Part shown: one piece after another, positions 9,180 to 50,057 of the stretch
Numbering within the stretch: position 1 is the first letter of the stretch
Layout of the letters: each line of letters begins with the position of its first letter
Assembly: GCA_011176635.1 (NCBI GenBank)
Contig: DUEC01000014.1
Location: 1 to 52,387, forward strand
Length of the DNA stretch: 52,387 nucleotides
Reading direction: 5' to 3'
Source: Dehalococcoidia bacterium
GTDB taxonomy: Bacteria > Chloroflexota > Dehalococcoidia > Dehalococcoidales > BS750m-G39
Made by a program: the position numbers and the translations under genes
Notes under the pieces: model-generated
Databases searched by the model: none
Told to the model about the DNA's origin: nothing
Seen by the model: only the letters and a program-made list of their open reading frames with translations

Positions 9180-9191
9180 AAAGAGGGAATA

Positions 9192-13161: not shown

Positions 13162-13221
13162 AGGCACCGCCTCCTTACCTTGCTGCTAAAAAAGAACAAT
13201 TATCAACTTAAACGGGAGAAA

Positions 13222-31387: not shown

Positions 31388-33232
31388 TTAGCCGAGTTCT
31401 TGAGCAACATCCTCCAGCCCAAGTTCTTTTAGTTTCTTATTGCTGGGTCTGGCTGTTTTCTGGTCCCAATCCATGGCGGCCAGGTATTCCCTGACCAGGG
31501 TATCTTCGTCGACGGTAACCCCGGCCAGGGGTCCCGCTTTTAGCGGCGGCTTGCCCACTAACCGACCTGAGATCTGGTAGGGCAGGGGACTAATCCCTTC
31601 GCGAATGTTAAAGGCCTGCCGGATATTGCCGATTCTCTCCCCGGTTAATACCAGCTCGTCGGTGGTTACGTCCCAGCCGGTAACGGCCCTCATAAACTCG
31701 ATGACGGCATCAACATTAGGCAGGGCGTTGTAGACAAAGAGACAGAACCCGGAAGCCATCAAGAAGTGCTGGAAGTTGCTGCCTTTTCTATATACTTGCC
31801 CCCGGCCGCTGAATGACTGCTTGTTGAATTTGGGTAATAGTCCATCAATATGATGCTCCTCAGAGCCTTGAGTATGGCGGGCGGGGGTGGCGTTGGTGAT
31901 ATAGGTGGTGGCTAAAGCAAAACCGGCGATGGGGTTGTGGGCGGGAATCTCCTGCCCCCGAACATGTATGGCATACTGGTCGGCGCCCTTGCCGATTTTC
32001 TGGGCGGCTGACTTCACTCCGTCAGCTAATATGTCGCCGAAACCTTCTCTCCTGGCCATTTTTTCGGTCATGGCCACTATGGCTTTATGGTTTCCCCAGG
32101 TCATTTCAATGCCATCGGTGTCCTTTTTATTGATGAGCCCTTTCTCATAGCATTCCATGGCGAAGGCAATGATGGCTCCGGCAGAGATGGTATCAACCCC
32201 GTAGCGGTTACAGATATCGTTTACCTTAATTATTGATTCAACATTGTCGTTGAGACAATCGCTGCCAAACATAGCCGATGTCTCGTACTCAGGTCTATGA
32301 CAGCCTGCCTGATATTTATATTCTCCCGTCCCTTCCTTCATAATTGCTTCACAGCCGATAGGACATAGATAGCAGCTAGCCCTCTTCAACCAGTGGCCTC
32401 TCACGGCCTCGGCGCCGATGGGTTTGGCATCGGGAAAATCAACCACGGCTACCCCTCCCCAGTTTTTTACCGGCGAATCCCCGCTCTCTATGGAGGAAAC
32501 AGTAACGAAGGTCGTCCCGAACTTCTTCAGCTGGTCAAGAGGCCCCTGCAGTTCACCGAGGTACTTTTTTCTTAATTGCTTAGTTCTTTCTTCATCGGCA
32601 ACCGGCACTTTCATCTTGCCTCTTACCGCCACTGCTTTGAGCTTCTTGGCCCCCATCACGGCGCCTAAACCCGAGCGGGCCGCAGCATGACCGTGGTCGT
32701 GGATAATGCTAGCGACGCGGGATAGTTTTTCTCCCGACTGGCCGATGCAGGCCACGGCTGCATCCTTGCCCAATTCAGATTTTAGCGTGTCTTCGGTCTG
32801 GTAGGTATCCTTACCCCATAGCTGCGCGGCATCCCTGAGCTCAGGCCTGCCGTTATCAATAAAGAGGTAAACCGGCTTTTCTGATATGCCGGTGAAGAAC
32901 AGGCCGTCATAGCCGGCGAATTTCAGGTAAGCGCCGAAATAACCGCCTGAATTAGCGTCACCCCAGCACCCGGTCAACGGCGATTTCCCGACCACGGTGA
33001 ATCTTGTACCGGAAATGGCCTGGGTGCCGGTAAAGGGACCGGTCAGAATACCCAGGATATTATCCGGCCCCAGGGGTTCGACGCCAGCCTTCTGCTCACT
33101 GAAGATAGTCCTGGCGCCAATGCCATAACCGCCGATGAACTGACGTCCCAGTTTTTCATCGAGCGGCTCGTCCTTGAGCTCATTTTTGGATAAATCCACT
33201 CTAAGTATCTTGCCCATGTAACCGCAAGCCAT
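31388..33232 (-). CDS. aor: Aldehyde:ferredoxin oxidoreductase (AOR family), copy 2
   Basis: Paralog of 13920-15728 (SPLTGCWGDANSGG, CYLCPIGC). ATG 33232 lies 7 nt after GGGAGG; the track start at 33265 is unlikely. Confidence 0.85.
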   Translation of the reverse strand: MACGYMGKILRVDLSKNELKDEPLDEKLGRQFIGGYGIGARTIFSEQKAGVEPLGPDNILGILTGPFTGTQAISGTRFTVVGKSPLTGCWGDANSGGYFGAYLKFAGYDGLFFTGISEKPVYLFIDNGRPELRDAAQLWGKDTYQTEDTLKSELGKDAAVACIGQSGEKLSRVASIIHDHGHAAARSGLGAVMGAKKLKAVAVRGKMKVPVADEERTKQLRKKYLGELQGPLDQLKKFGTTFVTVSSIESGDSPVKNWGGVAVVDFPDAKPIGAEAVRGHWLKRASCYLCPIGCEAIMKEGTGEYKYQAGCHRPEYETSAMFGSDCLNDNVESIIKVNDICNRYGVDTISAGAIIAFAMECYEKGLINKKDTDGIEMTWGNHKAIVAMTEKMARREGFGDILADGVKSAAQKIGKGADQYAIHVRGQEIPAHNPIAGFALATTYITNATPARHTQGSEEHHIDGLLPKFNKQSFSGRGQVYRKGSNFQHFLMASGFCLFVYNALPNVDAVIEFMRAVTGWDVTTDELVLTGERIGNIRQAFNIREGISPLPYQISGRLVGKPPLKAGPLAGVTVDEDTLVREYLAAMDWDQKTARPSNKKLKELGLEDVAQELG

Positions 33233-33261
33233 AGCTTTTCCTCCCTGTATATTTGATGGTG

Positions 33262-34215
33262 TCAAGAGGCGAGGAGATGCCGATAACTTTCAGGGTGTTT
33301 TTCCAGGTACTCAGCCAGCGACTGCGCCAGGTGTCCGGCAAGCTTGGGTACGGTGTCGCTGACGGTGTCCAGTTCGCCGGTGGCTATCTGCAGGAAGTGG
33401 CTAACCCAGACCTCGACACCATAGTCATCCAGCCCGCTACCCGTCAACCTTATTTGCTCAGCCTCGAACTTGTCCAGGCCACTCGTCGTATGCGTAGTCC
33501 TTGCCTGGTGGGGAGTCTGCGCTTGGTAGGTTATCTTCCGGCCGGTGGCGTAAGACAACCGCTCGGCGGTCTCTACCATGGTAAGTGCCTCCGGGCCGGT
33601 GACATCGTAGGTGCACCCTTCGTGTCCACTCCCCGTCATAACGGCCACAGCTACATCGGCAAGGTCATCACGAGTCAGCCAGCAGGCGCGCCCTTCGCCG
33701 GCGGGCGCCCGTATAACTCCGCCGTCTGAGACATGTAGCGGCACATTTTCGGTATAAAGGCTCATCCGCAGAAAGGTGAATGGCATACCAAGGGCGCGTA
33801 TGTGCTCCTCGGTATGGAAGTGGTCACGGGCCAGGACGAATGTTGAGTCCGCCGCCGCGTTTAGAAACGACAGGTAAATAATATGCCGGACGCCTGCCGC
33901 CGCGGCAGCATCAACCGCCGTTACCTGCTGCGTGGTGCGGTCGTAGGTCGGGTTCGGAGCTTTCTCGGCGGCGCTACGCTGAACGGCCCCCATACGGTCC
34001 TGTGCCGAAACCAGGAACAGCGTGTCCACACCAGATAAAGCCCTGCCCATGGCCACCGCATCGCCATATGAGGAAGCCGGCACGACCTCGGCATCGGGCA
34101 GGTCCGGTGCGCGTGCCGGGTCGCGGACGATAAGCCGTTGTTTCCGTCCCAGCTCTGCCAGACGGGCGGCAACCCTGCCCCCGACTTGACCAGTAGCCCC
34201 GGTAACCGCTAACAT
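33262..34215 (-). CDS. NmrA-like / atypical SDR NAD(P)-binding protein
   Basis: VTGATGQVGGRV Rossmann motif. 317 aa. Confidence 0.7.
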   Translation of the reverse strand: MLAVTGATGQVGGRVAARLAELGRKQRLIVRDPARAPDLPDAEVVPASSYGDAVAMGRALSGVDTLFLVSAQDRMGAVQRSAAEKAPNPTYDRTTQQVTAVDAAAAAGVRHIIYLSFLNAAADSTFVLARDHFHTEEHIRALGMPFTFLRMSLYTENVPLHVSDGGVIRAPAGEGRACWLTRDDLADVAVAVMTGSGHEGCTYDVTGPEALTMVETAERLSYATGRKITYQAQTPHQARTTHTTSGLDKFEAEQIRLTGSGLDDYGVEVWVSHFLQIATGELDTVSDTVPKLAGHLAQSLAEYLEKHPESYRHLLAS

Positions 34216-37115: not shown

Positions 37116-38072
37116 CTATCTGACTTTAAGCGTAACCTGAATTTCGCCGCCTTTCCTGACCACCTGTTCCACAACCGGAATCTCTCTCAGGATGCCGAGC
37201 AGAGGAATCGGCTCCTCGGCGGAGACGACAATTCGGCTGCCCTTATCCACCGAACCCCCGACCAATACCAGGCGCAGGTTTTCCACCTGGCCCAGCTCTT
37301 TCCCCAGATTCTCCAGCTGAGCTAAGTCTATCGGCGGCATTATGACCAGTTCCACCATCCCCTCATAGGGCCTGGCCATTACCGCCGCCTCCGCTTCCTC
37401 CCCACCTGCCTCCTCAGCTTGTTTGGCCTCTTTGGCTTCCCGCTTAGCCTTATCCTTGGCCTCTTTAGCCTCTTTTTTGGCCTTCTCCTTGGCTTCTTTG
37501 GCCTCCTGCTTCGCCTTCTCTTCAACTTCTTTGGCTGCCTTTTGAGCTTGCTCTGCGGTCGTTTCCTCGGCTGACTCTTTGGTTTGCTCTTCAGCCTCTT
37601 TAGGTTCTTCCTTAGCTATTTCCTCAGCTTCTTTGGCTTCCTCTTCGGCCGCCTTGGCCTCTTTAGCCTCTTTTTTGACTTCTTCTTTTGCCTTCTCCCC
37701 GGCCTCTTTCTCAACTTCCTTAGCTTCTTCCTTAGCCTTCTCCTCAGCCTCTTTCTCGGCTTCCTGCTTCGCCTTTTCCTCGGCTGCCTGTTTAGCCTGC
37801 TCCTCGGCTTCCTTTCGAGCTTGCTCTTCAGCCTCTCTTTGAGCTTCTTCTTCAGCTTCCCTTTGAGCCTTCTCTTCGGCCGCCTTAGCTTCCTCCCTGG
37901 CCCTCTCCTCAGCCTCCTGAGCTTCCCTCTCGGCCCTCTCCTGGGCTTCCTTAGCCTCCCCACCCCCCTTCCTTATCTTGGGCTTATTGCCCGGGCTGCT
38001 CCTCATCACGGGGTAGCCGCACCACTGGCAATAGTCACCGGTAGTCTCTCGGCCGCAATTAGGACAAATCAT
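37116..38072 (-). CDS. Zinc-ribbon protein with long Lys/Glu/Ala-rich coiled-coil-like repeat and small C-terminal globular domain
   Basis: N-terminus MICPNCGRETTGDYCQWCGYP, then ~200 aa of EEKA/KEAE repeats, then a C-terminal ~90 aa non-repetitive domain. A promoter lies upstream. Confidence 0.7.
   Translation of the reverse strand: MICPNCGRETTGDYCQWCGYPVMRSSPGNKPKIRKGGGEAKEAQERAEREAQEAEERAREEAKAAEEKAQREAEEEAQREAEEQARKEAEEQAKQAAEEKAKQEAEKEAEEKAKEEAKEVEKEAGEKAKEEVKKEAKEAKAAEEEAKEAEEIAKEEPKEAEEQTKESAEETTAEQAQKAAKEVEEKAKQEAKEAKEKAKKEAKEAKDKAKREAKEAKQAEEAGGEEAEAAVMARPYEGMVELVIMPPIDLAQLENLGKELGQVENLRLVLVGGSVDKGSRIVVSAEEPIPLLGILREIPVVEQVVRKGGEIQVTLKVR
37390..37960. repeat. Degenerate coding tandem repeat (GCCTC/TTCCTT-rich on +; encodes the KE-rich segment on -)
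   Basis: The low complexity is visible in the sequence and produces long spurious ORFs in other frames. Confidence 0.7.
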
Positions 38073-38266: not shown

Positions 38267-38539
38267 ATGGTAAATTCAAAAAAAATCGACCCCATGCTGA
38301 CGACGAGCGATGTCGCTCGCCTTCTCAACATACACATAAACACGGTAAGGCGATGGAGCAACCAGGGGATACTAAAGACATACCGCATCGGCTCCCGAGG
38401 TGACCGCAGGTTCCGCCAGGAGGATATTACCAGCTTCCTCTCACAAGAATTAAAAAGGGCGGAAGTGGGGGGAGGGGAAAACTTTGAAAAACCACCCGCT
38501 GGAGACGTCAATAAGTTATTAGTCAATTCCAAGGTATAA
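38267..38539 (+). CDS. Excisionase/MerR-type helix-turn-helix DNA-binding protein
   Basis: MLTTSDVARLLNIHINTVRRWSNQGILKTYRIGSRGDRRFRQEDI is a classic HTH_17-like sequence. GGGAGG SD upstream. Confidence 0.75.
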   Translation: MVNSKKIDPMLTTSDVARLLNIHINTVRRWSNQGILKTYRIGSRGDRRFRQEDITSFLSQELKRAEVGGGENFEKPPAGDVNKLLVNSKV

Positions 38540-38561: not shown

Positions 38562-39257
38562 GTGGACAAAATCACGGTGATGATAATCGACGAGCAAGAA
38601 TTTTTTCGGACCGGTGTACGCCAGGTACTATCGCAGCAACAGGACTTCAAAATAATAGACTGCGACCCAGCCCAGAAGCCATTGGAGCTAATTGAAGCCA
38701 ACCTCCCTGATGTCGCCCTGTTGGGCTCCGACCTGGCTACCTTCAGCGGTCTGGAACTGGGCAGAACAATCGCCCGGCTCTACCCCAATACCAAAGTGAT
38801 AATGCTGAGCCCCAATCCCAACGACGAGGAGCTCTTCGAGGTTATTAAGACCGCCGCCGTAGCCTGCTTAAATAAGAAGGCTTCCGCCGAAGAGCTGGTC
38901 AGCACTATCAGACGGGCCTCAAACGGGGAATACCCCATCAATGAAAGCCTTACCACCAGACCCACCATTGCCAAGCAGGTCTTAAAGCAATTTCAGGATA
39001 TAGCATCAATAGGAAAAGCCATGGAGGCGGTATCCGCCCCCCTCACCAAAAGGGAGGCGCAGATTCTGAACTATATCGCCGCCGGCAACTCAAATAAACA
39101 AATCGCCTACATCCTGAGTATCAGTGAGCAGACAATCAAGAACCATGTCAGTTCCATTCTACGCAAACTAAACGCCAATGATAGAGCCCATGCTGTTGCC
39201 CTGGCCATGCGCAACGGCTGGCTTTTAGGTGAGCAAAAACCAGGGGAGGCGTCCTAA
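38562..39257 (+). CDS. NarL/LuxR-family response regulator (receiver + GerE-type HTH), GTG start
   Basis: Receiver-like N-terminus, and C-terminal LTKREAQILNYIAAGNSNKQIAYILSISEQTIKNHVSSILRKL. Confidence 0.8.
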   Translation: MDKITVMIIDEQEFFRTGVRQVLSQQQDFKIIDCDPAQKPLELIEANLPDVALLGSDLATFSGLELGRTIARLYPNTKVIMLSPNPNDEELFEVIKTAAVACLNKKASAEELVSTIRRASNGEYPINESLTTRPTIAKQVLKQFQDIASIGKAMEAVSAPLTKREAQILNYIAAGNSNKQIAYILSISEQTIKNHVSSILRKLNANDRAHAVALAMRNGWLLGEQKPGEAS

Positions 39258-39268
39258 TAAGCTCTGGA

Positions 39269-41710
39269 ATGAAAGCCGAACATCGGTTTCAGGTCCGGGA
39301 TTTTAAGGATGGAGAGAATAAAGTGCCGCAATTAGGAATTAAACAAGACGCAAAGTCCCAGGTCATAGAACACCTGGAAGAACAGGGTTACAAAGTAACC
39401 GAAGGGGCTAAACTCCTGGGGAAGTCAGGGGTTGAGCATACCTTTGACATACTGGCGCAGAGGGATAACGGCTCTACCCCTCACACCATTGCTATCTGTA
39501 TTACCGCCGGAAGCGATAGCGAGACCGAGGGGGGCTCTGTCTTTAGCTTTGCCACCAGAGCCTACGACGCCAGCGTTGAGGAAAAGATTCTTATCGCCAT
39601 CCCTGAGCTTGGCCAGGAAGCCAAGGAACTGGCCAAAAAGCAACGGATAAAGGTCATCGATGAGGAAGAAATAGGTTCGTTGCTTGACTTCAAGCCCCTA
39701 TCGCCATTCAAGCTGGAGGAGCTCAGCTTTGAAAGCAAGAAGCAACTGACGGAATCCCTGGCCGAGATGGGCTACCAGATTGAGGAAAAATCCAAGGTTA
39801 GAGGCCGGTCAGGGGTTGAACATACCTTTGATATATTGGCTTATGCCGACATAGAGGGAGTTGGTCACAGCCTGGGCATAGATTTCCTGGAGGGGGAAAG
39901 GGAGATAACCCTGGAACAGTTAGCCATATTTGATACCAAAGCCTACGAGGTGGGCATTGACGACAAGGTCATCGCCACCTCACTGCCGCTAAGCCCCCAG
40001 GCCCAGCAATTTACCCAGCAACAGCGGATAAGGGTCATTAAGTCAAAGAAGGGGAAGGGAAGCGCCGCTCAAGCCACCTCGGGCAAAGAAAAGCCGGCCC
40101 TAACAGATGAGAAGCCGACCATGATGGAGGAGAAACCGGCATCAGCAGAGGAGAAGCCGACCATGATAGAGGAGAGGCCGGCCAAAGAAGAGAAGCCAGC
40201 GGCTCCAGTGGCTGGACCCGAGTTCAAACAGTTGAGGCACGCGCCTCAGCCTGAAGCACTGCAGTTAATCCCCGAGGTGATAGCCAGAAGGTACAATGCC
40301 ATGCCCCTGGCTATATCCGGTCACACATTACAGGTAGCTATGGCCGACCCCAGCGATATATTCGCCCTGGAGGCTTTCTCCGCCTTAAGCCGGATGAGGA
40401 TTAAACCTATAGCCGCCGGCGCCAACGAGGTCAGGGAGGCTATCGACTTTAACTATAAAGGCTACGGCGAGATTGAAAAACAGCTTTCCCGTATCTCTTC
40501 CCCCGATGAGACCAACGCCGAGAGACTAGCCATTACCGCCGATACCGATGCCCCCTTAGCTCAGGCCCTTAACCTTATTATTGAAGAGGCGGTCAAAGCC
40601 CGCTCATCTGATATCCACATCGAGCCGGAAGAGGACCGCTTAAGGGTGCGCTACCGCATCGACGGCACCCTCCAGGACATGATGTCCCTGCCGCTGAACA
40701 TACACCTGGCCCTCGTTTCCCGAATCAAAATCCTGGCCGATTTGAACATCGCCGACCGCCACCGCCCCCAGGACGGCCAGTTCTCCACCGAGGCTAAAGG
40801 GCGGCAAATAGATATCAGGGTGGCTACTGCCCCCACGGTCAGTGGCGAGATGGCGTCGCTGCGCCTGTTGGACAAGTCGGTGGCTACTATAGGCATACCC
40901 GAGCTTGGCATGCTACCTGATAGCCTGGAAAAGTATGAAAATATGCTAAAAGTGCCCTACGGCATGATTCTGATTAGCGGTCCTACCGGCGCTGGTAAGA
41001 CTACCACCCTTTATGCCTCAATCAACTCCCTTGACTGCCTGGGGAGAAACATCATCACCATTGAAGACCCCGCCGAGTATCGGTTTAAGGATATCAACCA
41101 GATTCAGGTCAACCCTCAAGCCGGCATCACCTTTGCCACTGGCTTGAGGAGCATACTCCGCCTTGACCCCGACGTGATAATGGTCGGTGAGATACGTGAC
41201 GGCGAAACAGCTAACATAGCGGTTCAAGCCGCCCTGACCGGCCACCTGATGCTATCTTCTGTCCATGCCAGCGATTCAGCCGGCGTGCTATCCCGTCTAC
41301 TTGACCTGGACATAGAGCCCTTCCTAATCGCCTCAGCCGTTATCGGGGTTGTGGCCCAGCGGATGGTGCGCCGCGTTTGTCCTGATTGTGGCCATCCTAT
41401 TGAGGCCCCAATGGTAGAGCAGATGGCTTACCAAAAGGAAATCGGGGAGAAGCGGGCTGAATTCGTATACGGCACCGGCTGCAAGTCATGTGCTTACACC
41501 GGTTATCTGGGGCGAACCGGAATCTTCGAGATTCTAGCCATGAGCGACACCATAAGGGCGATGATTACCAGCCAGACGAACAGTAGTGATATCCATGCCC
41601 AGGCAATTAAGGAGGGCATGGTAACCATGATGAACGATGGTATGCGTAAAGTTAAGGAAGGCATCACCACACCCTCCGAGGTGTTGCGCAATGCCTACTC
41701 TGCAGACTAG
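39269..41710 (+). CDS. pilB: PilB/GspE-family pilus assembly ATPase with an unusual N-terminal extension (two Mrr-like modules + EKP repeat)
   Basis: T2SSE_N-like region (LIPEVIARRYNAMPLA..), Walker A GPTGAGKTTT, Asp/His boxes, and a tetracysteine motif (CPDC..CKSC). An alternative start is GTG 39323. Confidence 0.85.
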   Translation: MKAEHRFQVRDFKDGENKVPQLGIKQDAKSQVIEHLEEQGYKVTEGAKLLGKSGVEHTFDILAQRDNGSTPHTIAICITAGSDSETEGGSVFSFATRAYDASVEEKILIAIPELGQEAKELAKKQRIKVIDEEEIGSLLDFKPLSPFKLEELSFESKKQLTESLAEMGYQIEEKSKVRGRSGVEHTFDILAYADIEGVGHSLGIDFLEGEREITLEQLAIFDTKAYEVGIDDKVIATSLPLSPQAQQFTQQQRIRVIKSKKGKGSAAQATSGKEKPALTDEKPTMMEEKPASAEEKPTMIEERPAKEEKPAAPVAGPEFKQLRHAPQPEALQLIPEVIARRYNAMPLAISGHTLQVAMADPSDIFALEAFSALSRMRIKPIAAGANEVREAIDFNYKGYGEIEKQLSRISSPDETNAERLAITADTDAPLAQALNLIIEEAVKARSSDIHIEPEEDRLRVRYRIDGTLQDMMSLPLNIHLALVSRIKILADLNIADRHRPQDGQFSTEAKGRQIDIRVATAPTVSGEMASLRLLDKSVATIGIPELGMLPDSLEKYENMLKVPYGMILISGPTGAGKTTTLYASINSLDCLGRNIITIEDPAEYRFKDINQIQVNPQAGITFATGLRSILRLDPDVIMVGEIRDGETANIAVQAALTGHLMLSSVHASDSAGVLSRLLDLDIEPFLIASAVIGVVAQRMVRRVCPDCGHPIEAPMVEQMAYQKEIGEKRAEFVYGTGCKSCAYTGYLGRTGIFEILAMSDTIRAMITSQTNSSDIHAQAIKEGMVTMMNDGMRKVKEGITTPSEVLRNAYSAD

Positions 41711-41731: not shown

Positions 41732-42943
41732 ATGGATTATCAATATGTAGCCTATACCGAAGATAGAACGCTGGTCAAAGGCAGGCTTTCGGCTACCAAC
41801 GAAGAAGCCGCCATAAATCTGCTCAGCTACGGCGGCTATCAAACAGTCAGCCTGAAGGAGATAACTCCCTTTTTCAATAGAGAAAAGCTGGCCGCCCGCT
41901 TTACCCGGGTAAAGTCAAGAGAAATTATAATGTTTGCCCGCCAGCTAGCTTTGCTGCTTGAATCGGGCACTGATATCGTTACCTCTCTAGAGCTACTACA
42001 GAGCCAGGTAACCAACAAAACCCTGCAGCGGGTAATTGGCGCGGTAGCCGCCGACATTCGCGGCGGTAGCTCGTTATCCAACGCCCTGAGCAAGCACCCC
42101 CGGGCTTTCCCTGAACTCTTCCACCGGACAATAGCCGCCGGCGAGCAGAGCGGCAACCTGGAGATAGTCTTAAGACAGATTGCCGATTATATGGAGAGAG
42201 GGGCCAACACCGAAAAGAGGATTAAAAGCGCCTTGACCTACCCCATTATCATTGTCGTTGTCGCCGTGTTGGTGATAAGCGTACTGGTCATCTTTGTTCT
42301 GCCCGCCTTTACCAGCCTGTACTCCAGCCTCGGCGCCGAACTACCCCTGATCACCAGGATGCTTATTGGCATATCCGACTTTCTCATCAGTTACGGGCTC
42401 TTTATTCTGCTGGCGCTGGTAGCGGCCGTTGTCGTTGGCTACCTTTATGCCAGAACGCCAGCCGGGAAATACCAGCTTGATAAACTATTACTCCGTGCCC
42501 CCGTAATCGGGCGGATTACCCAGCTCAGCGAGCTTTCCCGTTGTTGCCGGACGATGTCACTCCTGTTCAGAGTCGGCTTACCCTTACCCGACGTCATGAC
42601 TCAGGCTATCCACGGCACCAAGAATAAGATTGTGCGCCAGTCTCTGAGCGAGGTCCAGCAGGAGCTGATTAGAGGCGAAGGCTTATCCAAGCCTATGGCC
42701 AAGAGGAAGCTCTTCCTGCCCTTGATGGTGCAGATGGCCGGAGTCGGCGAGGAAACCGGTAACCTTGATAACACGCTGGCTACAGTAGCCCAGACCTACG
42801 AGGTTGAGGCTGATGACAGGACCAGCTCGGCGGTAGGGCTTATTCAGCCAGCCATAACCGTAGCCATAGGCTTAGCCGTTGCTTTCCTGGCCGTAGCCCT
42901 GGTCTCATCCATGTATTCTATCTACGGGCAGACGACTTTCTAG
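41732..42943 (+). CDS. pilC: PilC/GspF-family pilus platform membrane protein
   Basis: Two T2SSF-like repeats, three TM segments, 403 aa. Confidence 0.85.
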   Translation: MDYQYVAYTEDRTLVKGRLSATNEEAAINLLSYGGYQTVSLKEITPFFNREKLAARFTRVKSREIIMFARQLALLLESGTDIVTSLELLQSQVTNKTLQRVIGAVAADIRGGSSLSNALSKHPRAFPELFHRTIAAGEQSGNLEIVLRQIADYMERGANTEKRIKSALTYPIIIVVVAVLVISVLVIFVLPAFTSLYSSLGAELPLITRMLIGISDFLISYGLFILLALVAAVVVGYLYARTPAGKYQLDKLLLRAPVIGRITQLSELSRCCRTMSLLFRVGLPLPDVMTQAIHGTKNKIVRQSLSEVQQELIRGEGLSKPMAKRKLFLPLMVQMAGVGEETGNLDNTLATVAQTYEVEADDRTSSAVGLIQPAITVAIGLAVAFLAVALVSSMYSIYGQTTF

Positions 42944-42955
42944 AGGTAAAGATAG

Positions 42956-43414
42956 ATGAAAAACGAAAAAGGCTTTACCTTAATCGGAGTGATGATAGCC
43001 CTGGCCCTGCTGGGCGTAATTGCCGTCGCCTTCCTCGGCGCTCTGGCTACGGCATCCCACGCTATCATTGTCGCCGATGAGCATGCCACTGCCGAGAGCA
43101 TAGCCAGAAGCCAGATGGAATACGTTAAAAACCAGCCCTACATCCCCGCCACTGATTATGACCCTGACGTACCTGGAAGCGGCCAGGTAACCTATGAAAT
43201 ACTTACCGTACTTACCGACATCCCCGATGGCTATGTTATCTGCAGTATCGACCGTAACGGTTATACCGTCCCCAACGCCGTATTTGGCGTTCCCTGGGAC
43301 AGCCAGAATAACCAGCCGGCGGACACCGATTCCGGGATACAGAGAATAAGTTTGATTATCATGCACTACGATAAGGAAATAATGACATTAGAGAACTACA
43401 AGGTGAACCGATGA
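42956..43414 (+). CDS. Prepilin-type minor pilin/pseudopilin
   Basis: N-terminus MKNEKG/FTLIGVMIALALLGVIAV, a class III signal peptide. Confidence 0.75.
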   Translation: MKNEKGFTLIGVMIALALLGVIAVAFLGALATASHAIIVADEHATAESIARSQMEYVKNQPYIPATDYDPDVPGSGQVTYEILTVLTDIPDGYVICSIDRNGYTVPNAVFGVPWDSQNNQPADTDSGIQRISLIIMHYDKEIMTLENYKVNR

Positions 43415-43941
43415 AACTAGCTAAACTTGGCTTAAATCAGAACCAGAGGGGTTTTGCTCTGCTGACTATGATGATAGCTCTGGCCATATCAGGCATTATC
43501 GTGACGGCGGCTACCATGACCACCTTCCAGGTGATGAACGGGAGTAACCGCACCTCCAATCACATGGTCGCCATCAGACAGGTGCAGAATGCCGGTTACT
43601 GGATAAGCTATGACGTCCAGATGTCTCAAACCGTGGAACCAGCCGCCGCACCGGACCAGGACGGGCTTCCCCTGACCCTGACCTGGAACGAGTACGCCAG
43701 CGGCATCGAGCACCAGATTGTCTACGAGCTGGTAGGCGACGAGCTCAGGCGCAGCTACTCCATCAACGGCGGGGCGCCGACGGAGTCCACCGTGGCTGAA
43801 TTCATTGTCTCCGGCACCAATTGTGAATATAGCGGCGGTGTGCTCACCTTCACCGTAGTCGCCACTGTGGGCGCCGGCTCACAGGAAATAACCGAGACCG
43901 GGATATATGAGATTATTCCCCGGCCAAGCGGGCAGAGCTAA
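43411..43941 (+). CDS. Prepilin-type minor pilin/pseudopilin
   Basis: NQRG/FALLTMMIALAISGIIV. ATGA overlap with the previous gene. Confidence 0.7.
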   Translation: MKLAKLGLNQNQRGFALLTMMIALAISGIIVTAATMTTFQVMNGSNRTSNHMVAIRQVQNAGYWISYDVQMSQTVEPAAAPDQDGLPLTLTWNEYASGIEHQIVYELVGDELRRSYSINGGAPTESTVAEFIVSGTNCEYSGGVLTFTVVATVGAGSQEITETGIYEIIPRPSGQS

Positions 43942-43963
43942 TAATTGAGCAGAGGGGAGGCTG

Positions 43964-45085
43964 ATGAAGATGAAAAGAATAATAAAGAAGATAATAAGGG
44001 GAGAGAAGGGTCAAGCGCTGATGATAACCTTGATTCTGCTCCTTCTGGGCAGTCTAATCACCGTTCCTCTTCTGGGTTTTGTGGGCACCGGGGTGGAAAC
44101 GGGTGCCGTCTATGAGGAGGACATGCTTGAGCTTTATGCCGCCGATTCCGGTATAGAGGATGCCATACAGCAGATAATAATCGGCGCCGAGGGCTTGCCC
44201 AGCGAGACCGACCCGATATGGTCATACCAGATAGCCGACGTGAACGGCAAAGAGGTATACGTTACCATAACCTATCTAGATAACGCCGCTTATAAAATCA
44301 CCTCCACAGCCGGCAACACTCAAATTACTGTCTTCATTGCCCCGTTGTACGGTGACTATGGCGGCATACTTGATAACGTCATCACCAGTCAGGGCGATTA
44401 TACATTGCAAGGTCCGACTACTGTTGAGCCCCCAGAGGGAGAAGAGCACGGACCTGTAGACAACTATGAAGGAGACTGGCCTACGCCTGAGCAACTTATC
44501 TTATTTTACTCTGAGGATGTAGAAGGTGTAGACCCCTACCCTAGCGGTACTCTGGATGTGGCCGACTATGCTGCTACTGGAATTGGGCCGCTTTATAGAG
44601 ATGGCACACTATCAATTGTAAACAGTGGGTCTGCGGGGCTAACAGTTTCACTTAATGACACTCTCTATATTACCGGCAACACCCAGATTGGGGCGACAGG
44701 ACATGATTTCACCCTCAACCTCAACGGGCAGACAATATTCGTCGAGAGTGACGAGACAGGCGGATATGCTCTTCAAATCGGGGGTAAATGCAACCTCACC
44801 GGTTCGGGAGTCATTATTGCCATTGGTAGTATTCAATTTAAACCTAATATGAGCTCCGGTCCCTCCGATTACATTCTTGTCATGTCGGTAATAGGTACGA
44901 CTTATATGCAGCCCAATGGCGATTTTTACGGCACTTTAGCCGGCTCCTCTGAAGTCTATATACAAAATGGTAGTGTCCACTGGTCACAGCCAGGCGAAGG
45001 TGGAATAAACTTCCCCGGCGAGGGTGGCAGCGGCAGCGAAGGTACTCAATACCTGATTCACTCTTGGGAGATTGGCCAACCATAG
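43964..45085 (+). CDS. PilX_N-like pilus-associated protein, paralog 1
   Basis: N-terminus MKMKRIIKKIIRGEKGQALMITLILLLLG and LYAADSGIEDAI (PilX_N-like). The second ATG (43970) is better spaced from the SD. Confidence 0.6.
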   Translation: MKMKRIIKKIIRGEKGQALMITLILLLLGSLITVPLLGFVGTGVETGAVYEEDMLELYAADSGIEDAIQQIIIGAEGLPSETDPIWSYQIADVNGKEVYVTITYLDNAAYKITSTAGNTQITVFIAPLYGDYGGILDNVITSQGDYTLQGPTTVEPPEGEEHGPVDNYEGDWPTPEQLILFYSEDVEGVDPYPSGTLDVADYAATGIGPLYRDGTLSIVNSGSAGLTVSLNDTLYITGNTQIGATGHDFTLNLNGQTIFVESDETGGYALQIGGKCNLTGSGVIIAIGSIQFKPNMSSGPSDYILVMSVIGTTYMQPNGDFYGTLAGSSEVYIQNGSVHWSQPGEGGINFPGEGGSGSEGTQYLIHSWEIGQP

Positions 45086-45106
45086 AAAGGCCGAGGGGAG
45101 GAGGCG

Positions 45107-46288
45107 ATGAAGATGAAAAGAATAGCCAAGAAGATAATAAGGGGGGAGAAGGGGCAATCACTGATTGCGGTCCTGATTCTGCTCCTCCTGGGCGGTCTGG
45201 TCACCGCTCCGGTTCTGAGTTTGGTGACCACCGGTGTGGATACGAATGCCGTCTATGAGGATGACATGAACGAGCTTTACGCCGCCGATGGCGGCATTGA
45301 GGACGCCATAAGGAATATAATAGCCGGCGCCGAGGGCTTGCCTAGCGAGAGTGACCCAATAGTGTCATACCAAATAGATGTGAATGACAAAAATGTAGAC
45401 GTTACCATAACCTACATAGATGACACCACCTATAGAATCACCTCCACCGCCACCACCGATGAAGAATCCAGCACCACCATTGAATCTTACCTTACCTCAA
45501 GCGGCGGTTCTGGCATCTTTGACAATGCCATTACCGCCCTCAACGGCGATATAACCCTTGGCGGCAACGCCCGGGTTATCTCATCGCCAACCAGCGGCGA
45601 GGGCGATATCTTCGCCAACGGTGACATTAACCTGAGTGGTAACGCCAGAGTAGAAGGCGACGGTACCGCCACCGGAGAAATCGATTTAAGCGGTAACTCC
45701 CAAATCGAGGGTGATGAGACCGAAGGCGCGACACCGGTAACTCCGCCCGATATAGACAGCGCCCCATACCTGCAGGAGGCGGAGATGGGCGGCGTCCATG
45801 AAGGTAACCTGAGCCTCAGTGGTAACGGCACTTACGACTTAGGGCCGCTGCATATTACCGGAAACCTTTCCATTTCCGGCAACCGCACGGTAACACTGGA
45901 AGGAACGGTTTATGTTGATGGCACCATCAGTATGAGCGGTAACACCCGCATCGAGGGCGGGTTTACCATTGTGGCCGATGGCAATATTGGTCTAACGGGA
46001 AATAGTAAACTCGACCTTGAGGACATCCCCTTCGTCTTTTCCACCAACGGCAACATTTCAACTACCGGCAATAACTGGACATCAGCCATAGTATACGCCC
46101 CTAACGGTCACGTCAACTTGACAGGAAACAGTAGGATATACGGGACTGTGCTCGGGCTTAGCGTTACCGGCTCGGGCAACAACAAGATTGAGTACCCCAT
46201 AGGGCTGAGCGACAGCGAGAGCCTGCCCGGCACCGGAGATGGCACCTACCAGATTCGCACCTGGGATATCAGTCACCAGCAGGAGTAG
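45107..46288 (+). CDS. PilX_N-like pilus-associated protein, paralog 2, with beta-helix-like (L/I)x(S/T)GN repeats
   Basis: Its N-terminal ~110 aa align to paralog 1. About ten copies of LSGN/LTGN/ISGN occur at ~20-aa spacing. Confidence 0.6.
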   Translation: MKMKRIAKKIIRGEKGQSLIAVLILLLLGGLVTAPVLSLVTTGVDTNAVYEDDMNELYAADGGIEDAIRNIIAGAEGLPSESDPIVSYQIDVNDKNVDVTITYIDDTTYRITSTATTDEESSTTIESYLTSSGGSGIFDNAITALNGDITLGGNARVISSPTSGEGDIFANGDINLSGNARVEGDGTATGEIDLSGNSQIEGDETEGATPVTPPDIDSAPYLQEAEMGGVHEGNLSLSGNGTYDLGPLHITGNLSISGNRTVTLEGTVYVDGTISMSGNTRIEGGFTIVADGNIGLTGNSKLDLEDIPFVFSTNGNISTTGNNWTSAIVYAPNGHVNLTGNSRIYGTVLGLSVTGSGNNKIEYPIGLSDSESLPGTGDGTYQIRTWDISHQQE

Positions 46289-46291
46289 TCG

Positions 46292-46921
46292 ATGAGGTTA
46301 AGGTTAAGTAGAACAGCTTGGTTAATTCTAGGGGGTGGTATTTTCGTTATCGTCCTGGGTATCCTTCTCTTAGGCTACGGCCGCCTCTCCGGTGAGCACG
46401 CCAATGTGGAGGGTGACCTGTCTGCAGCTCAGAATCTCCTGCCCACTGTTGTCTCTGAGAGGGAGTATTGGGAAAACCAACTGGCCCAGTTGGAAGACCA
46501 ACTGGCTGAAGGCACGTCATCGCTCAACGCCAGCAAGGCGAGATTCCCCCGAAGCGTGGATAGCATTGAATACGATGAGGAGTTATTTATCATTGCTCAC
46601 GCCCACGACCTGGAAATAGCCAGCATCACCGCCTCAGAGCCTTACCAGGAAGATATACTGGGTATTATCTACACTACCACCATTTTTGAGGTAGAGGTAA
46701 TGGCAGGGGAGCACTCCTATGTAACCTGGACCCAGGGGCACATCGACCAGGTCGTTGACAATATAGTCGGCTTCCTCAACGCTTTAGTCACCAGCGATTA
46801 CTTCGATACGGCTTCCATAGACCTGGTAAGTATAATTGCCCCGGCTGATGAAGAAGGGGAGGAAGTAACAGAGCCTTCAGCCATCATCACCCTGGTTATC
46901 TACAGTTACCAAGAGGAATAA
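46292..46921 (+). CDS. PilO-like bitopic pilus alignment protein
   Basis: N-terminal TM (AWLILGGGIFVIVLGILLLG), a coiled coil, position between the minor pilins and pilM/N. Confidence 0.5.
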   Translation: MRLRLSRTAWLILGGGIFVIVLGILLLGYGRLSGEHANVEGDLSAAQNLLPTVVSEREYWENQLAQLEDQLAEGTSSLNASKARFPRSVDSIEYDEELFIIAHAHDLEIASITASEPYQEDILGIIYTTTIFEVEVMAGEHSYVTWTQGHIDQVVDNIVGFLNALVTSDYFDTASIDLVSIIAPADEEGEEVTEPSAIITLVIYSYQEE

Positions 46922-46923
46922 TC

Positions 46924-48393
46924 ATGGCCAAGAAAGTTGTTACCTTATTTATTAGAGATGATTCCGTTAACCTGCTGATAATGGCGGGTAAACGAGTGGA
47001 AAAGTGGGCCAGCCTGCCGCTGGAGCCGGGGCTGGTCAGCCAAGGGCTCGTCGTTGAGGAAGCCCAGGTAGCTAACAAGCTTAAGGAGCTATTTAAGCTG
47101 GAAAAGATAGCCGCGGGGAGGATTATTGCCGGCTTAAGCGGCCATAACTCCGTATACCGCATAATAAACCTGCCCGAGTTGCCCGAAGCGGTACTGCCTG
47201 AGGCGGTCAAGCGTGAGGCCAAAAGGGTGATACCAGTGCCTCTGGAGGAGGTCTACCTTTCCTACCAGCCTCTTCCCCCCACCGAGGGAGAAACACGCCT
47301 TTTCCTGGCCGCTTTCCCGCGCAATGCGGCTGACGCCCTGCACCGGACGCTACACCAGGCCGGGCTTCAGCCCTACATCATGGATTTAGCTCCCCTGGCC
47401 CTGTGCCGAGCGGTGAATGAACCCAGGTCCATAATCGTAAACACCAAGTCAGACAACACCGACATTATAGTGATGACGGAGAGAATACCCCAGGTAATCC
47501 ACAGGCTATCCCTACCTGGTGAGGCTGAATCGTCAGCGGAAAGGTTATCAGCCATAGCCGAAGAGATTGACCGGACGATTACCTTCTACAATTCCAGCCA
47601 CCAGGATGCGCCCTTAGATTCAACGGTGCCCATGCTGGTCTGCGGCGACCTGGCCGGGGAACCGGAGAGTTGGGAATCGCTGGCTGGCAAGTCGGGGTGC
47701 ACCGTCTCAGTACTGCCCTCGCCCGTGGAAACCCCCGATGGCTTTAACCCCAACGGGTTTATGGTCAACATAGGGCTGGCCCTTAAGGAGCTGCTGGCCG
47801 AAAGAGGAGAGTCTAACTTTTCCCTGGTCAACCTCAACACCATGCCCGAGGTTTACCGGCCCAAGCCCGTCCGCTTACCGAACATCTTTGCCCCCGTTGC
47901 CCTAGCCGTCGGTATCAGCATACTCCTCGGCGTGGGATTCCTCGTCTTCAACACGGCTTCTCACACCGGCGTATTGCGCTCCGAACTGGAGTCCCTGGAG
48001 AGCCTTATCGCCCAGGAGACGGCGACAACAGGCTTACTGCAGAGCCAGGTTACGCTCATAGAGCCGCAGATTACGGAGGTAGAGGCTACCAGAGATATCT
48101 TTGACGGCACCTTCAACACCCTGGCCGATATTCGCATAGAGGTTAACGCCGATGTGAGCCAGATTGTAACCTCCTGCCCCACGGAGATAGGCCTGACCGG
48201 GGTTGACCACGTGATTAATAGCGCCACCGTAGGCGGCGTGTCCCCGACCGAGCACAGCATCTTCGTATACGCCAGAAGTCTAAGAGCCAGCGGACGGTTT
48301 TCCACGGTGACTATCTCCTCCATAGAAGCTATAGAGGAAGAGGGGGAGGTCACCGGCTTTGAATTTGAGATTCTCCTGGGACCCAAGGAATAA
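46924..48393 (+). CDS. pilM: PilM (actin-like ATPase fold) fused to a PilN-like TM + periplasmic domain
   Basis: PilM-like N-terminal ~310 aa, TM IFAPVALAVGISILLGVGFLVF, then a coiled coil and a PilN-like C-terminus. Confidence 0.7.
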   Translation: MAKKVVTLFIRDDSVNLLIMAGKRVEKWASLPLEPGLVSQGLVVEEAQVANKLKELFKLEKIAAGRIIAGLSGHNSVYRIINLPELPEAVLPEAVKREAKRVIPVPLEEVYLSYQPLPPTEGETRLFLAAFPRNAADALHRTLHQAGLQPYIMDLAPLALCRAVNEPRSIIVNTKSDNTDIIVMTERIPQVIHRLSLPGEAESSAERLSAIAEEIDRTITFYNSSHQDAPLDSTVPMLVCGDLAGEPESWESLAGKSGCTVSVLPSPVETPDGFNPNGFMVNIGLALKELLAERGESNFSLVNLNTMPEVYRPKPVRLPNIFAPVALAVGISILLGVGFLVFNTASHTGVLRSELESLESLIAQETATTGLLQSQVTLIEPQITEVEATRDIFDGTFNTLADIRIEVNADVSQIVTSCPTEIGLTGVDHVINSATVGGVSPTEHSIFVYARSLRASGRFSTVTISSIEAIEEEGEVTGFEFEILLGPKE

Positions 48394-48398
48394 GAGAA

Positions 48399-49469
48399 GT
48401 GGATATTTTGGCTTTACTTCATACAGCCAAGTCAAAGGCGGCCTCGGACGTGCACCTGGTTGTCTCCAGTCCGCCGCTGCTGCGCATTGACGGCTCGCTA
48501 ACGCCGGTGGACAGCACCGCGCCGCTCAGTGAGGACGATATAAGCCAGGCTTTCAACCAGATAACCACCGCCGAGCAAAGGGAGGACTTCAACAAGAACC
48601 TGGAGCTCGATTTTAGCTACGTCCTGCCCGATATCGGTCACGTGCGCTGCAACGCCGCTCAACAGCGCGGGGCTATCAGCCTTGCCCTGCGCCTTTTGCC
48701 CCCGGAAGTCCCCACCATAGATGAGATGGAGCTGCCGGCGATATGCAAGGAGCTGGCCATGAAGCCGAGGGGGCTGGTAATAGTTACCGGACCTACCGGC
48801 AGCGGTAAGAGCACCACCCTGGCGGCTATGATTAACCACCTGAATACCAATGAAAGCCGCCATATAGTCACTATTGAAGACCCCATAGAATACGTATACA
48901 CCAGTAAAAAGTGCGCAATAACCCAGCGCCAGTTAGGCAGCGATACCGTATCCTTTGCCGCCGCCTTAAAGCACGTCCTGAGGCAGGACCCCGATGTGAT
49001 TCTGGTGGGAGAGATGAGGGACCTGGATACGGCAGCGGCGGCGCTTACCATAGCCGAGACCGGCCACCTGGTATTAACCACCGGTCATGCCCCCAGCGCC
49101 ACTCAAGCCATGGAGAGAGTAATAGACCTGTTCCCCCCCGATGAGCGTCACCTGGCCCAGACGCGGTTAGCTTCTCTGCTGATTGCTGTGCTATGTCAGG
49201 TGCTCGTCCCCCGGGCTAACGGCTCGGGCAGGACAGTCGCCGTTGAGATTATGCTGGCTAATCCACCGGTGAGAAACCTCATCCGTGAGGGCAAAATCTA
49301 CCAGCTGCCCAATGTAATCCGCACTCACCGGGAAATAGGCATGATCTCACTGGATGAAGCCCTGGTCAACCTCTATCTTAAAAAGACCATCACCGGTGAA
49401 GTCCTGCTCGCTACCTGCAACGACCGCCAGGAAGTAGAAAAGCTCATCGGCAAGGTCGAGGTCAAATAA
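48399..49469 (+). CDS. pilT: PilT-type retraction ATPase (GTG start)
   Basis: DILALLHTAKSKAASDVHL, Walker A GPTGSGKSTT, AALKHVLRQDPDVILVGEMRD, GHLVLTTGH. Confidence 0.9.
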   Translation: MDILALLHTAKSKAASDVHLVVSSPPLLRIDGSLTPVDSTAPLSEDDISQAFNQITTAEQREDFNKNLELDFSYVLPDIGHVRCNAAQQRGAISLALRLLPPEVPTIDEMELPAICKELAMKPRGLVIVTGPTGSGKSTTLAAMINHLNTNESRHIVTIEDPIEYVYTSKKCAITQRQLGSDTVSFAAALKHVLRQDPDVILVGEMRDLDTAAAALTIAETGHLVLTTGHAPSATQAMERVIDLFPPDERHLAQTRLASLLIAVLCQVLVPRANGSGRTVAVEIMLANPPVRNLIREGKIYQLPNVIRTHREIGMISLDEALVNLYLKKTITGEVLLATCNDRQEVEKLIGKVEVK

Positions 49470-49694
49470 CCTCTTAAATCTTTAAAAGCCCTCCCCCTAA
49501 TAATTACCCCCCGCTAAACGGCCTTCTTCCCCCATGGCGACAAGCCGATAATAACAGAAAAGCTCATTGGCAAGGCCTTAAAAGATAACCTCACCAATAA
49601 GCTTTTCTAACTTGCTTTTGCTATCAGCCAGGGCTTCGAAGCCCTCTAGCTATGATTACAAATGAGTGCCTTGGCTAGTTCAGATGGCTAGGAT

Positions 49695-50057
49695 TTACTC
49701 AGCTACTGCTGGACAAGGTGAAGACTGCGTTACGGTGCAGTTAGGATAAGTGCCACCAAAGGTGTAGCCGCCCATTAACTCGCTCATGGGGCTCTCAAAG
49801 TAAACAGCCAGCTGAGTTAAATAGTCAGCAGTAGTGGGGCAGGCTTGATTCTCGGCAACATAGGCCATGGTAGCAGTTGCCATCATTCGGTCTTCAATGT
49901 CACACGCCTCATCTTGGCCCTGACCGAAGAAACGGCCAAAGTTAGGCACCACTATTGCCGCCAGGATACCGAGGATAGCAATCACCACCAGCAACTCAAT
50001 CAGGGTGAACCCCTTCTCGCCATAGCGAAAGCTCTTGAATAACCGCTTTAGTCTCAT
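49695..50057 (-). CDS. pilA: Type IV major pilin (prepilin with 16-aa leader)
   Basis: MRLKRLFKSFRYGEKG/FTLIELLVVIAILGILAAIV is a canonical G/FTLIE site. Four Cys in the C-terminal half. Strong SD GGGAGGTG. Confidence 0.85.
   Translation of the reverse strand: MRLKRLFKSFRYGEKGFTLIELLVVIAILGILAAIVVPNFGRFFGQGQDEACDIEDRMMATATMAYVAENQACPTTADYLTQLAVYFESPMSELMGGYTFGGTYPNCTVTQSSPCPAVAE

Follow-up and report, generated by a model that had tools for sequence, protein, structure and literature searches.

Predicted inactive nuclease-fold modules shared by the pilus ATPase PilB and TackOD1 proteins of Dehalococcoidia

Introduction

The ATPases of the PilB/MshE/GspE family carry accessory domains at the N-terminus, including the MshEN domain which binds cyclic di-GMP (c-di-GMP), the multiple GSPII domains of Thermus PilF, and the N1 domain of GspE which binds GspL. 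The switching of type IV pilus motors is known mainly in Proteobacteria, through c-di-GMP, PilZ/FimX and Chp, and to our knowledge the control of the pilus motor is essentially unknown for Chloroflexota and archaea. Here, a stretch of 52,387 nucleotides from a Dehalococcoidia bacterium (contig DUEC01000014.1 of assembly GCA_011176635.1) was analyzed, and this whole stretch is called the window. Its type IV pilus locus encodes a PilB-type extension ATPase with two nuclease-like modules in tandem at the N-terminus and, beyond the pilT gene, a Cys-rich TackOD1 protein with two more copies of the same module.

As an output domain of response regulators, TackOD1 is widespread in archaea and bacteria. 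Galperin and colleagues, who defined it in archaeal regulators of this kind, gave it a signature of eleven conserved Cys residues in five CXXC motifs and one HXXC motif (PMC5847659). Earlier work placed TackOD1/arCOG06883 in type IV pilus loci of Thaumarchaeota and described the architectures TackOD1 alone, REC-TackOD1 and REC-wHTH-TackOD1 (PMC4858521, PMC5847659). Its function was called obscure in both papers (PMC5847659, PMC4858521).

In the literature searched, no description was found of a PilB with a nuclease-fold tandem shared with TackOD1 regulators, and the literature on Dehalococcoidia pili and on NA-iREase1 (NACHT-associated inactive restriction endonuclease 1) held nothing relevant. 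An earlier note, which a model had made from the DNA sequence alone, knew of no such architecture in described pilus systems, and no paper describing it was found. What is new is that TackOD1 is regularly followed by a module which appears to be a dead nuclease fold, that a whole bacterial class seems to have moved this module onto PilB itself, and that the TackOD1-iRE2x and PilB genes are adjacent in sister lineages (iRE, one module; iRE2x, the tandem pair). A concrete and testable hypothesis is offered, in which TackOD1 regulators would act on PilB and the module is the domain most likely mediating the contact; it opens the control of the pilus motor in Chloroflexota, and possibly in archaea, to direct tests. 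The case also adds to the inactivated restriction-endonuclease folds that are reused as adaptor or sensor domains, here outside immunity.

Four homologous modules in PilB and the TackOD1 protein

The copies in PilB were named B1 and B2, and those in the TackOD1 protein Z1 and Z2 (Table 1). By pairwise blastp of the window copies, B1 and B2 were 36.5% identical (E 4e-18), Z1 and Z2 were 64.9% identical (E 1e-49), and each PilB copy matched each TackOD1-protein copy (B1/Z1, E 6e-27; B1/Z2, E 7e-30; B2/Z1, E 8e-27; B2/Z2, E 2e-28). All four modules, of about 120 residues each, could be aligned end to end, and as judged by these alignments their similarity is far beyond chance. The statements of the earlier note that PilB has two mutually repeated N-terminal copies (39347-40054, residues 27-262) and that a zinc-ribbon protein at 50299-51672 has the module twice more were thus confirmed, the former by E 4e-18 and the latter by E 8e-27 to 7e-30 against the PilB copies. 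The two units stood as proposed, and only their bounds (27-135 and 155-262) were slightly narrow, as a hidden Markov model (HMM) of the four copies placed them at residues 18-142 and 146-270.

The Pfam family Mrr_cat (PF04471, cut-off 21 bits) was matched by two stretches within the N-terminal 270 residues of PilB (34.8 bits) and by two stretches of the 457-residue TackOD1 protein (49.6 bits). When the PilB modules were scanned alone, B1 reached 27.9 bits and B2 lay below Pfam detection. The resemblance to Mrr_cat noticed earlier was in this way borne out, and the structure models described below also gave a nuclease fold.

The 457-residue protein matched TackOD1 (PF18551, arCOG06883) over residues 30-206 with 122.9 bits, against a cut-off of 32. 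In an alignment of 39 homologues, C96/C99, C110/C113, H126/C129, C146/C149, C169/C172 and C185/C188 were invariant, which equals the published TackOD1 signature of five CXXC and one HXXC (PMC5847659). The earlier note was right that this zinc-ribbon protein is Cys-rich and carries two modules, and it missed the membership in TackOD1. Like the thaumarchaeal TackOD1/arCOG06883 proteins, the window protein has the signature and lies in a pilus locus. It differs in its C-terminal inactive-nuclease module, which occurs once in Nitrososphaerales and WOR-3 and as a tandem in Dehalococcoidia, is common to PilB, and found no mention in PMC5847659 or PMC4858521 or their supplements; the nuclease-like half of TackOD1-iRE had gone unremarked.

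PilB carried the T2SSE core and the T2SSE_N/MshEN domain of the PilB/GspE family (Pfam). It scored below both NCBIfam equivalog cut-offs (PilB TIGR02538, 505 against 675.65 bits; GspE TIGR02533, 522.3 against 630.25 bits), and its alignment to the NCBIfam PilB model began at model position 68. By these scores the window PilB belongs to a divergent subfamily whose canonical N-terminus is replaced. The tandem lies N-terminal to the ATPase on a flexible linker, where regulatory domains of the PilB family normally lie. As with the other N-terminal domains of PilB, MshE and GspE, an accessory unit stands before T2SSE_N and the ATPase core and presumably controls motor activity or partner binding; the difference is that this unit is a PD-(D/E)xK tandem on a long flexible linker and that its module is common to a separate regulator.

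Among 75 PilB orthologues the linker was K/P/E/A-rich and 13-81 residues long (median 25), and the pLDDT (predicted local distance difference test) of the AlphaFold2 (AF2) model was about 50 at PilB residues 261-275. In the window linker, tandem EEKP(A/T)xx-type repeats occur in degenerate form ('EKPALTDEKPTMMEEKPASAEEKPTMIEERPAKEEKPAAP'). A much longer spacer between module and MshEN was seen in a PilB relative of 1111 residues. The 24-residue c-di-GMP-binding motif of MshEN was not matched in the window PilB with up to four substitutions allowed, which is a weak test. The mean identity within B1 and within B2 was 54-56%, compared with 75% for the ATPase core, and judging from these values the PilB modules are under constraint, though a looser one than the ATPase core.

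Predicted nuclease fold and loss of the catalytic motif

AF2 models were built from homologue alignments. The model of PilB residues 1-275 had a pLDDT of 84.8 and a predicted template modelling score (pTM) of 0.70, and that of the full 457-residue TackOD1 protein had a pLDDT of 85.8 and a pTM of 0.69; for multi-domain models these pTM values hint at a defined packing of the module pair. In the models every module was ordered alpha-beta-beta-beta-alpha-beta-alpha-beta. The Foldseek comparison proposed in the earlier note was performed against the PDB, and all the top matches were PD-(D/E)xK nucleases, namely AF1548 (1y88), Can2, Cdn1, the R2 retrotransposon endonuclease, MspJI, EcoT38I, FokI and NucC. 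The probability was 1.00 for AF1548, Can2, Cdn1, the R2 endonuclease and MspJI, and AF1548 was the best structural match. The module profile gave only marginal matches to PDB sequences (AF1548, E 0.23), which supplied the register of the catalytic residues and are not proof of homology; for that the Foldseek comparison was required.

In this profile-to-sequence register, the Asp of AF1548 aligned to the invariant beta-2 Asp of 'FDILA', and the E-x-K of AF1548 to A-I-G/C/D of the modules. A set of 320 modules from 160 proteins was then divided into six groups: B1, B2, ZA1 and ZA2 (from the type-A/C TackOD1 proteins described below), and ZW1 and ZW2 (from window-like TackOD1 proteins). The pair of acid and Lys of (D/E/Q)xK on beta-3 was absent from the consensus of all six groups. 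The beta-3 strand of B1, 'TIAICITAG', is without ExK, and that of B2, 'LGIDFLEG', keeps the Asp, followed by Phe-Leu with Leu in place of Lys. The earlier note had counted a Lys at this position in only one of the four copies; this was right, and the Lys in question (Z1, 'IGIKVA') is not kept in orthologues, where the group consensus is Glu. The polar motifs kept in all groups were G-[KR]-S-G before beta-2, a His, the beta-2 Asp, F-D-x-K-x-Y-D in helix 2, D-[KR] at the start of beta-4 ('GIHDK') and Q-R-I-K-V in the last strand. Because the acid and Lys pair was missing from the group consensuses and in the alignment to AF1548, the modules were judged inactive. As predicted from the sequences and models, they have the PD-(D/E)xK fold and are not active enzymes of this family, with no copy holding a real (D/E)xK. 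The non-catalytic nuclease fold suggested earlier was therefore supported by the Mrr_cat match, by the AF2/Foldseek fold and by the loss of (D/E/Q)xK from six group consensuses.

Compared with Mrr_cat/AF1548 domains, the modules share the Pfam match, the alpha-beta-beta-beta-alpha-beta core and the G-K/R-S-G...D motif leading into beta-2. They differ in the missing (D/E/Q)xK and in standing as a tandem on a pilus ATPase or a zinc-ribbon regulator, not on domains for DNA recognition or modification sensing. NA-iREase1 (PF22722) is likewise an inactivated restriction-endonuclease fold used as a non-catalytic accessory domain; the partners of the present module are PilB, TackOD1 and REC, not NACHT/STAND nucleoside triphosphatases, and a PADLOC scan gave no defence context. 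The NA-iREase1 gathering score of 27 bits was reached by the homologues P0013 (30.1), P0065 (35.3) and P0121 (33.4), while P0005, P0014 and P0002 lay just below it, and no match of NA-iREase1 to the window proteins was found at E<=1 in the Pfam scan.

The same residues were considered for a rearranged active site, in which the modules would be active nucleases whose Lys has migrated, for instance to the D-K/R that opens beta-4, and would process DNA in pilus-mediated uptake or defence. Migration of the Lys is known in some PD-(D/E)xK enzymes, and here the beta-2 Asp and the D-[KR] of 'GIHDK' were kept in all groups. However, B1, Z1 and Z2 lack the acid as well as the Lys of (D/E)xK, and B2 keeps an Asp alone; relatives match the inactive family NA-iREase1; and the conserved partners are signalling domains (REC and TackOD1), not methyltransferases or helicases. 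No PADLOC defence model was matched either, upon which the defence reading was dropped. Nuclease activity was therefore considered very improbable.

Conservation and gene arrangements of the fused PilB

A scan of one genome per GTDB species yielded 223 loci with relatives of the tandem, and the best 80 of them, a selection biased towards the PilB type, were analyzed; almost all were labelled Dehalococcoidia, Dehalococcoidales or Chloroflexota. When all open reading frames (ORFs) were translated and matched to the window domains, the tandem and the PilB core were in one continuous ORF in about 73 of the 80 loci. The gene order was conserved as HTH_17, LuxR-type response regulator, iRE2x-PilB, PilC, pilins, PilM/N and PilT; the HTH_17 gene was kept upstream of the fused PilB in most loci, and the REC-LuxR/GerE regulator directly 5' of pilB in about 60 loci. 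The window has the same operon, with PilC, PilM/N, PilT and prepilins following pilB (41732-50057). Since the fused ORF and the synteny recur in about 73 of these 80 loci, each from a different GTDB species, iRE2x-PilB is a lineage-wide feature and not an artefact. The opposite view, that the fused ORF arose from assembly or gene calling or that the repeat similarity is due to chance, could appeal to loci L048, L055 and L064, in which the tandem and the PilB core were in separate overlapping ORFs or next to runs of N. These apparent splits were frameshifts or masked stretches evident in the assemblies. With a continuous ORF in the window and about 70 independent assemblies, and repeat E values of 1e-18 to 1e-49, the artefact explanation was refuted and its probability is close to nil.

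Three arrangements of the two genes were observed. In type A (L001, L073, L077), a PilB of about 520 residues, without the tandem, is encoded 3-20 bp downstream of the TackOD1-iRE2x gene. In type C (L079, L081, L163, L164, L165), an operon consists of TackOD1-iRE2x, one to four paralogous genes for proteins of about 141 residues, and iRE2x-PilB. In the window type, the TackOD1-iRE2x gene lies past pilT, at the distal end of the locus, in convergent orientation. For the window type, 80 metagenome loci of close relatives of the window TackOD1 protein were sampled, and PilT and PilM/N were found beside the TackOD1-iRE2x gene, with gaps of 0.7-5.2 kb, in 19 of the 20 loci that had at least 5.5 kb of downstream flank. 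The window-type PilB has the tandem wherever its N-terminus was in range (window, L015, L086). The fused PilB and TackOD1-iRE2x occurred in one pilus locus in the window, L015, L079, L081, L086, L163, L164 and L165. The co-occurrence by which the earlier note had proposed to check a link to a dedicated regulator is thus present at the level of the locus, in these shared loci and upstream of the unfused PilB in type A.

The paralogues between TackOD1-iRE2x and the fused pilB, of about 131-142 residues, were located at L079:5031-7183, L081:5740-7768, L163:8246-10499, L164:7526-7954 and L165:7625-9756. One of them gave a weak, sub-threshold match to Pfam MAPKK1_Int of the Roadblock/LC7 superfamily (E 0.004). 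These Roadblock-like genes may form a further regulatory layer; a homologue was looked for in the window and none was found. The type A and C loci also encode a conserved secreted protein of about 1130-1240 residues with a signal-peptide-like N-terminus; its gene lies, with a small HTH_17 gene, in divergent orientation upstream of TackOD1-iRE2x (L001:6120-9563, L073:5585-8980, L077:5212-8664, L163:1298-4981, L164:1937-5380, L165:1788-5501). A Pfam match is on record for the L001 copy only, a faint one to DUF6242_C.

Origin of the PilB tandem

The mean group identity of B1 and B2 was 30.5%. Compared with the modules of type-A/C TackOD1 proteins, B2 was 44.1% identical to Z2 and 35.8% to Z1, and B1 was 39.1% identical to Z1 and 38.2% to Z2. 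An internal duplication within PilB was rejected, as B1 and B2 (30.5%) are less alike than either is to the TackOD1 modules (35-44%). Acquisition from TackOD1-iRE2x was favored because B2 is closest to the type-A/C Z2 both in identity and in a neighbour-joining (NJ) tree, and we infer that the PilB tandem derived from an already duplicated TackOD1-iRE2x tandem by fusion or domain transfer. The type-A loci have the putative donor gene type immediately upstream of pilB. No TackOD1-iRE2x-PilB triple fusion was seen among the best 150 representative proteins; a simple read-through fusion of adjacent genes was disfavored for this reason, and partial duplication or domain transfer appears more likely.

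The window Z1 and Z2 (50302-51030, minus strand) are 65% identical, and throughout the window-like clade the NJ tree groups Z1 with Z2 and not each with the module at its own position in other TackOD1 proteins, which suggests homogenisation, gene conversion or re-duplication within the gene.

The module in other lineages

A search of 1.84 billion representative proteins with a profile built from 18 modules gave 1051 matches at E<=1e-3 and 71 at E<=1e-30, and the long matches were scanned with Pfam. Response regulators of the form REC-TackOD1-iRE2x and REC-TackOD1-iRE3x were found, at least one from Dehalococcoidia. Other architectures were a PilB fragment with four modules, the PilB of 1111 residues with a very long linker, and REC-iRE. 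Many proteins of about 316-334 residues consisted of TackOD1 and a single module, with cluster members from Nitrososphaerales/Thaumarchaeota archaea and candidate division WOR-3, and an archaeal module matched the HMM of the four window modules at E 2e-20. Found in both archaea and bacteria, the TackOD1-iRE unit is by its sequence distribution old and crosses the domains of life. Databases automatically label fragments of these proteins 'restriction endonuclease' or 'general secretion pathway protein E'.

On the metagenome contig L162, a REC-TackOD1-iRE2x gene is preceded by genes for a histidine kinase and an OmpR-type regulator and stands immediately 5' of a GT2 glycosyltransferase (chitin/cellulose-synthase-like); a related REC-TackOD1-iRE2x cluster has a Dehalococcoidia member. 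In the Nitrososphaerales loci L166 and L167, a TackOD1-iRE gene likewise lies immediately 5' of a GT2 gene, and two of the GT2 proteins (L162 and archaeal) were 39% identical over 412 residues. These results suggested GT2 as a second conserved target besides pili. In the WOR-3 locus L168, the neighbours of TackOD1-iRE were neither pilus genes nor GT2. The gene pairs are at L162:10001-13786, L166:8001-10452 and L167:3603-6054, with GT2 proteins of the Glyco_transf_21/chitin-synthase-like type.

From this distribution it can tentatively be proposed that TackOD1-iRE proteins form an unrecognised family of post-translational regulators of surface-polymer machines (pilus motors and GT2 synthases) in archaea and bacteria, whose dead-nuclease module docks or senses a nucleotide signal. 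If so, the family would correspond in function to the PilZ/MshEN c-di-GMP receptors, and the PilB fusion would be the 'Rosetta stone' for its target. With PilZ/FimX-type regulators the analogy is one of role only, in the genomic ties to the pilus motor and GT2 synthases, and there is no sequence or fold relationship.

Possible role of the tandem

The reading we favor, with evenly balanced confidence, is that the tandem is a non-catalytic adaptor or regulatory unit, derived from TackOD1 proteins, which couples TackOD1 regulators to PilB as the predicted binding partner. The pattern of fusion and fission is a classic indicator of physical association, and because of it the tandem and PilB probably act together physically. 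Nuclease-fold units characteristically pair, and for this reason association of the two tandems is favored: the pair in PilB and the pair in the TackOD1 protein would associate, or would compete for a single docking site or ligand. In this way the PilB hexamer would recruit the TackOD1 regulator, which once docked would tune pilus extension; in some relatives a phospho-receiver (REC) domain would in turn control the regulator. Where PilB is unfused, docking on it would occur in trans, through the tandem that the TackOD1 protein carries.

Several observations weigh against this reading. The TackOD1 gene was unseen in many fused-PilB loci within the DNA retrieved, most loci ending soon after pilT, and the PilB tandem may work without a TackOD1 partner. 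The module is not PilB-specific, as TackOD1-iRE also stands beside GT2 (L162, L166, L167) or beside neither (L168). As to the derivation from TackOD1 proteins, the NJ tree in which the B2 clade is sister to the Z2 modules of type-A/C proteins is without bootstrap, and B1 is nearly equidistant from the type-A/C Z1 and Z2 (39.1% vs 38.2%). Finally, the strongly conserved polar residues predicted round the former active site (G[KR]SG, H, D, DxKxYD, D[KR], QR) are no less consistent with a ligand pocket than with a protein interface.

Such a pocket would serve a small-molecule sensor, in which the old active site binds a nucleotide second messenger or metabolite and gives the input to PilB and to TackOD1 outputs. 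The polar residues are invariant across all module groups despite the lost catalysis, the position in PilB is the N-terminal regulatory one, and the canonical MshEN c-di-GMP motif was not detected in the window PilB. The module family is moreover linked to pilus motors and GT2 synthases in bacteria and archaea, and pili and polysaccharide synthases are the two classic targets of c-di-GMP receptors, so that the role would be analogous to that of the c-di-GMP-binding MshEN and PilZ domains which control them. However, we know of no PD-(D/E)xK domain established as a dedicated second-messenger receptor, and the loci examined showed no gene for a cyclase or a phosphodiesterase. A sensor function was regarded as rather unlikely.

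A DNA-binding domain with lost cleavage was also considered, by which TackOD1-iRE proteins would be transcription factors of the pilus or GT2 operons that begin with their genes, and the PilB copy would tether the motor to DNA, for example for autoregulation or competence-type uptake. The modules were found to be mildly acidic, with a mean isoelectric point of 5.5-6.8 and a net charge of -1 to -4, which is atypical of DNA binders, although the Foldseek matches place them in the fold of DNA-binding nucleases, a tandem would mimic a restriction-endonuclease homodimer on a palindrome, and the beta-2 Asp and adjacent polar active-site motifs are kept. TackOD1-iRE is often first in its operon (L001, L163-L167), and REC-TackOD1-iRE2x looks like a response regulator whose output domain binds DNA; yet dedicated DNA-binding regulators (HTH_17 and the LuxR-type response regulator) are already present in the loci. 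Nor is it obvious why a hexameric, membrane-associated motor should carry a DNA-binding domain in about 73 species, and in competence systems the DNA imported by the pilus and the PilB N-terminus are in different compartments. The probability of DNA binding was thus rated as low.

Other features of the pilus locus and the window

The features of the locus are collected in Table 1.

Table 1. Features of the pilus locus in the window, with the AF2 elements of each module in residue numbers of its protein
Feature	Position	Strand	Basis	AF2 elements
HTH_17/MerR-type small DNA-binding protein, first gene of the locus	38267-38539	+	Pfam HTH_17, 47.6 bits	
REC + LuxR/GerE response regulator, directly upstream of pilB	38562-39257	+	Response_reg 59.7, GerE 79.7 bits	
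PilB-type type IV pilus extension ATPase, 813 aa, tandem at N-terminus	39269-41710	+	ORF, Pfam, NCBIfam	
Module B1, PilB residues 18-142, predicted inactive PD-(D/E)xK, Mrr_cat-like	39320-39694	+	HMM envelope	H19-38 E42-50 E56-66 E71-79 H84-100 E105-110 H116-124 E127-131
Module B2, PilB residues 146-270, predicted inactive PD-(D/E)xK	39704-40078	+	HMM envelope	H157-166 E170-178 E184-195 E198-206 H215-228 E232-237 H243-251 E254-259
Flexible K/P/E/A-rich PilB linker with degenerate EEKP repeats, tandem to ATPase	40079-40228	+	sequence	
MshEN/T2SSE_N domain, PilB residues 324-396	40238-40456	+	Pfam PF05157, 59.3 bits	
T2SSE ATPase core, PilB residues 425-807	40541-41689	+	Pfam PF00437, 419.7 bits, E 1e-125	
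PilC platform protein	41732-42943	+	position downstream of PilB; L001 equivalent matches T2SSF	
PilM-PilN fusion protein	46924-48393	+	Pfam PilM_2 59.1 bits, PilN 18.9 bits	
PilT-type retraction ATPase, 356 aa	48399-49469	+	Pfam T2SSE, 152.5 bits	
Prepilin (N_methyl motif), between pilT and the TackOD1-iRE2x gene	49695-50057	-	Pfam N_methyl, 39 bits	
TackOD1-iRE2x protein, 457 aa, Cys-rich TackOD1 domain then two modules	50299-51672	-	Pfam, AF2	
TackOD1 domain, residues 30-206	51055-51585	-	Pfam PF18551, 122.9 bits	
Module Z1, about residues 215-335 of the TackOD1 protein	50668-51030	-	blastp, AF2	H221-231 E235-243 E249-259 E264-273 H280-293 E297-303 H308-316 E319-322
Module Z2, about residues 345-457 of the TackOD1 protein	50302-50640	-	blastp, AF2	H352-361 E365-373 E379-389 E394-403 H410-423 E427-433 H438-446 E450-453

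Two adjacent large pilin-like proteins are encoded on the plus strand at 43964-45085 (373 residues) and 45107-46288 (393 residues). Their N-termini are near-identical (MKMKRI.KKIIRGEKGQ...) and the sequences diverge further on; the protein at this position in L001 was annotated DUF7305. Immediately upstream of the pilus locus, a protein of 318 residues (37116-38072, minus strand) has an N-terminal Cys4 zinc ribbon with a weak DUF7575 match, then a low-complexity stretch, about 200 residues long and extremely rich in E, K and A, and lastly a short globular part at the C-terminus.

Elsewhere in the window, a low-GC island at 9171-13167 had a GC content of 0.42-0.43, compared with about 0.55 in the remainder. 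It encodes a B12-binding radical SAM protein of 717 residues with a C-terminal PqqD/RiPP-recognition domain (RiPP, ribosomally synthesized and post-translationally modified peptide) at 11014-13167 on the minus strand, and two ORFs without Pfam matches (9171-10295 and 10292-10885). The island may be a horizontally acquired peptide-modification cluster. Two paralogous genes for aldehyde:ferredoxin oxidoreductase (AFOR) were located at 13920-15728 (plus strand) and 31388-33265 (minus strand).

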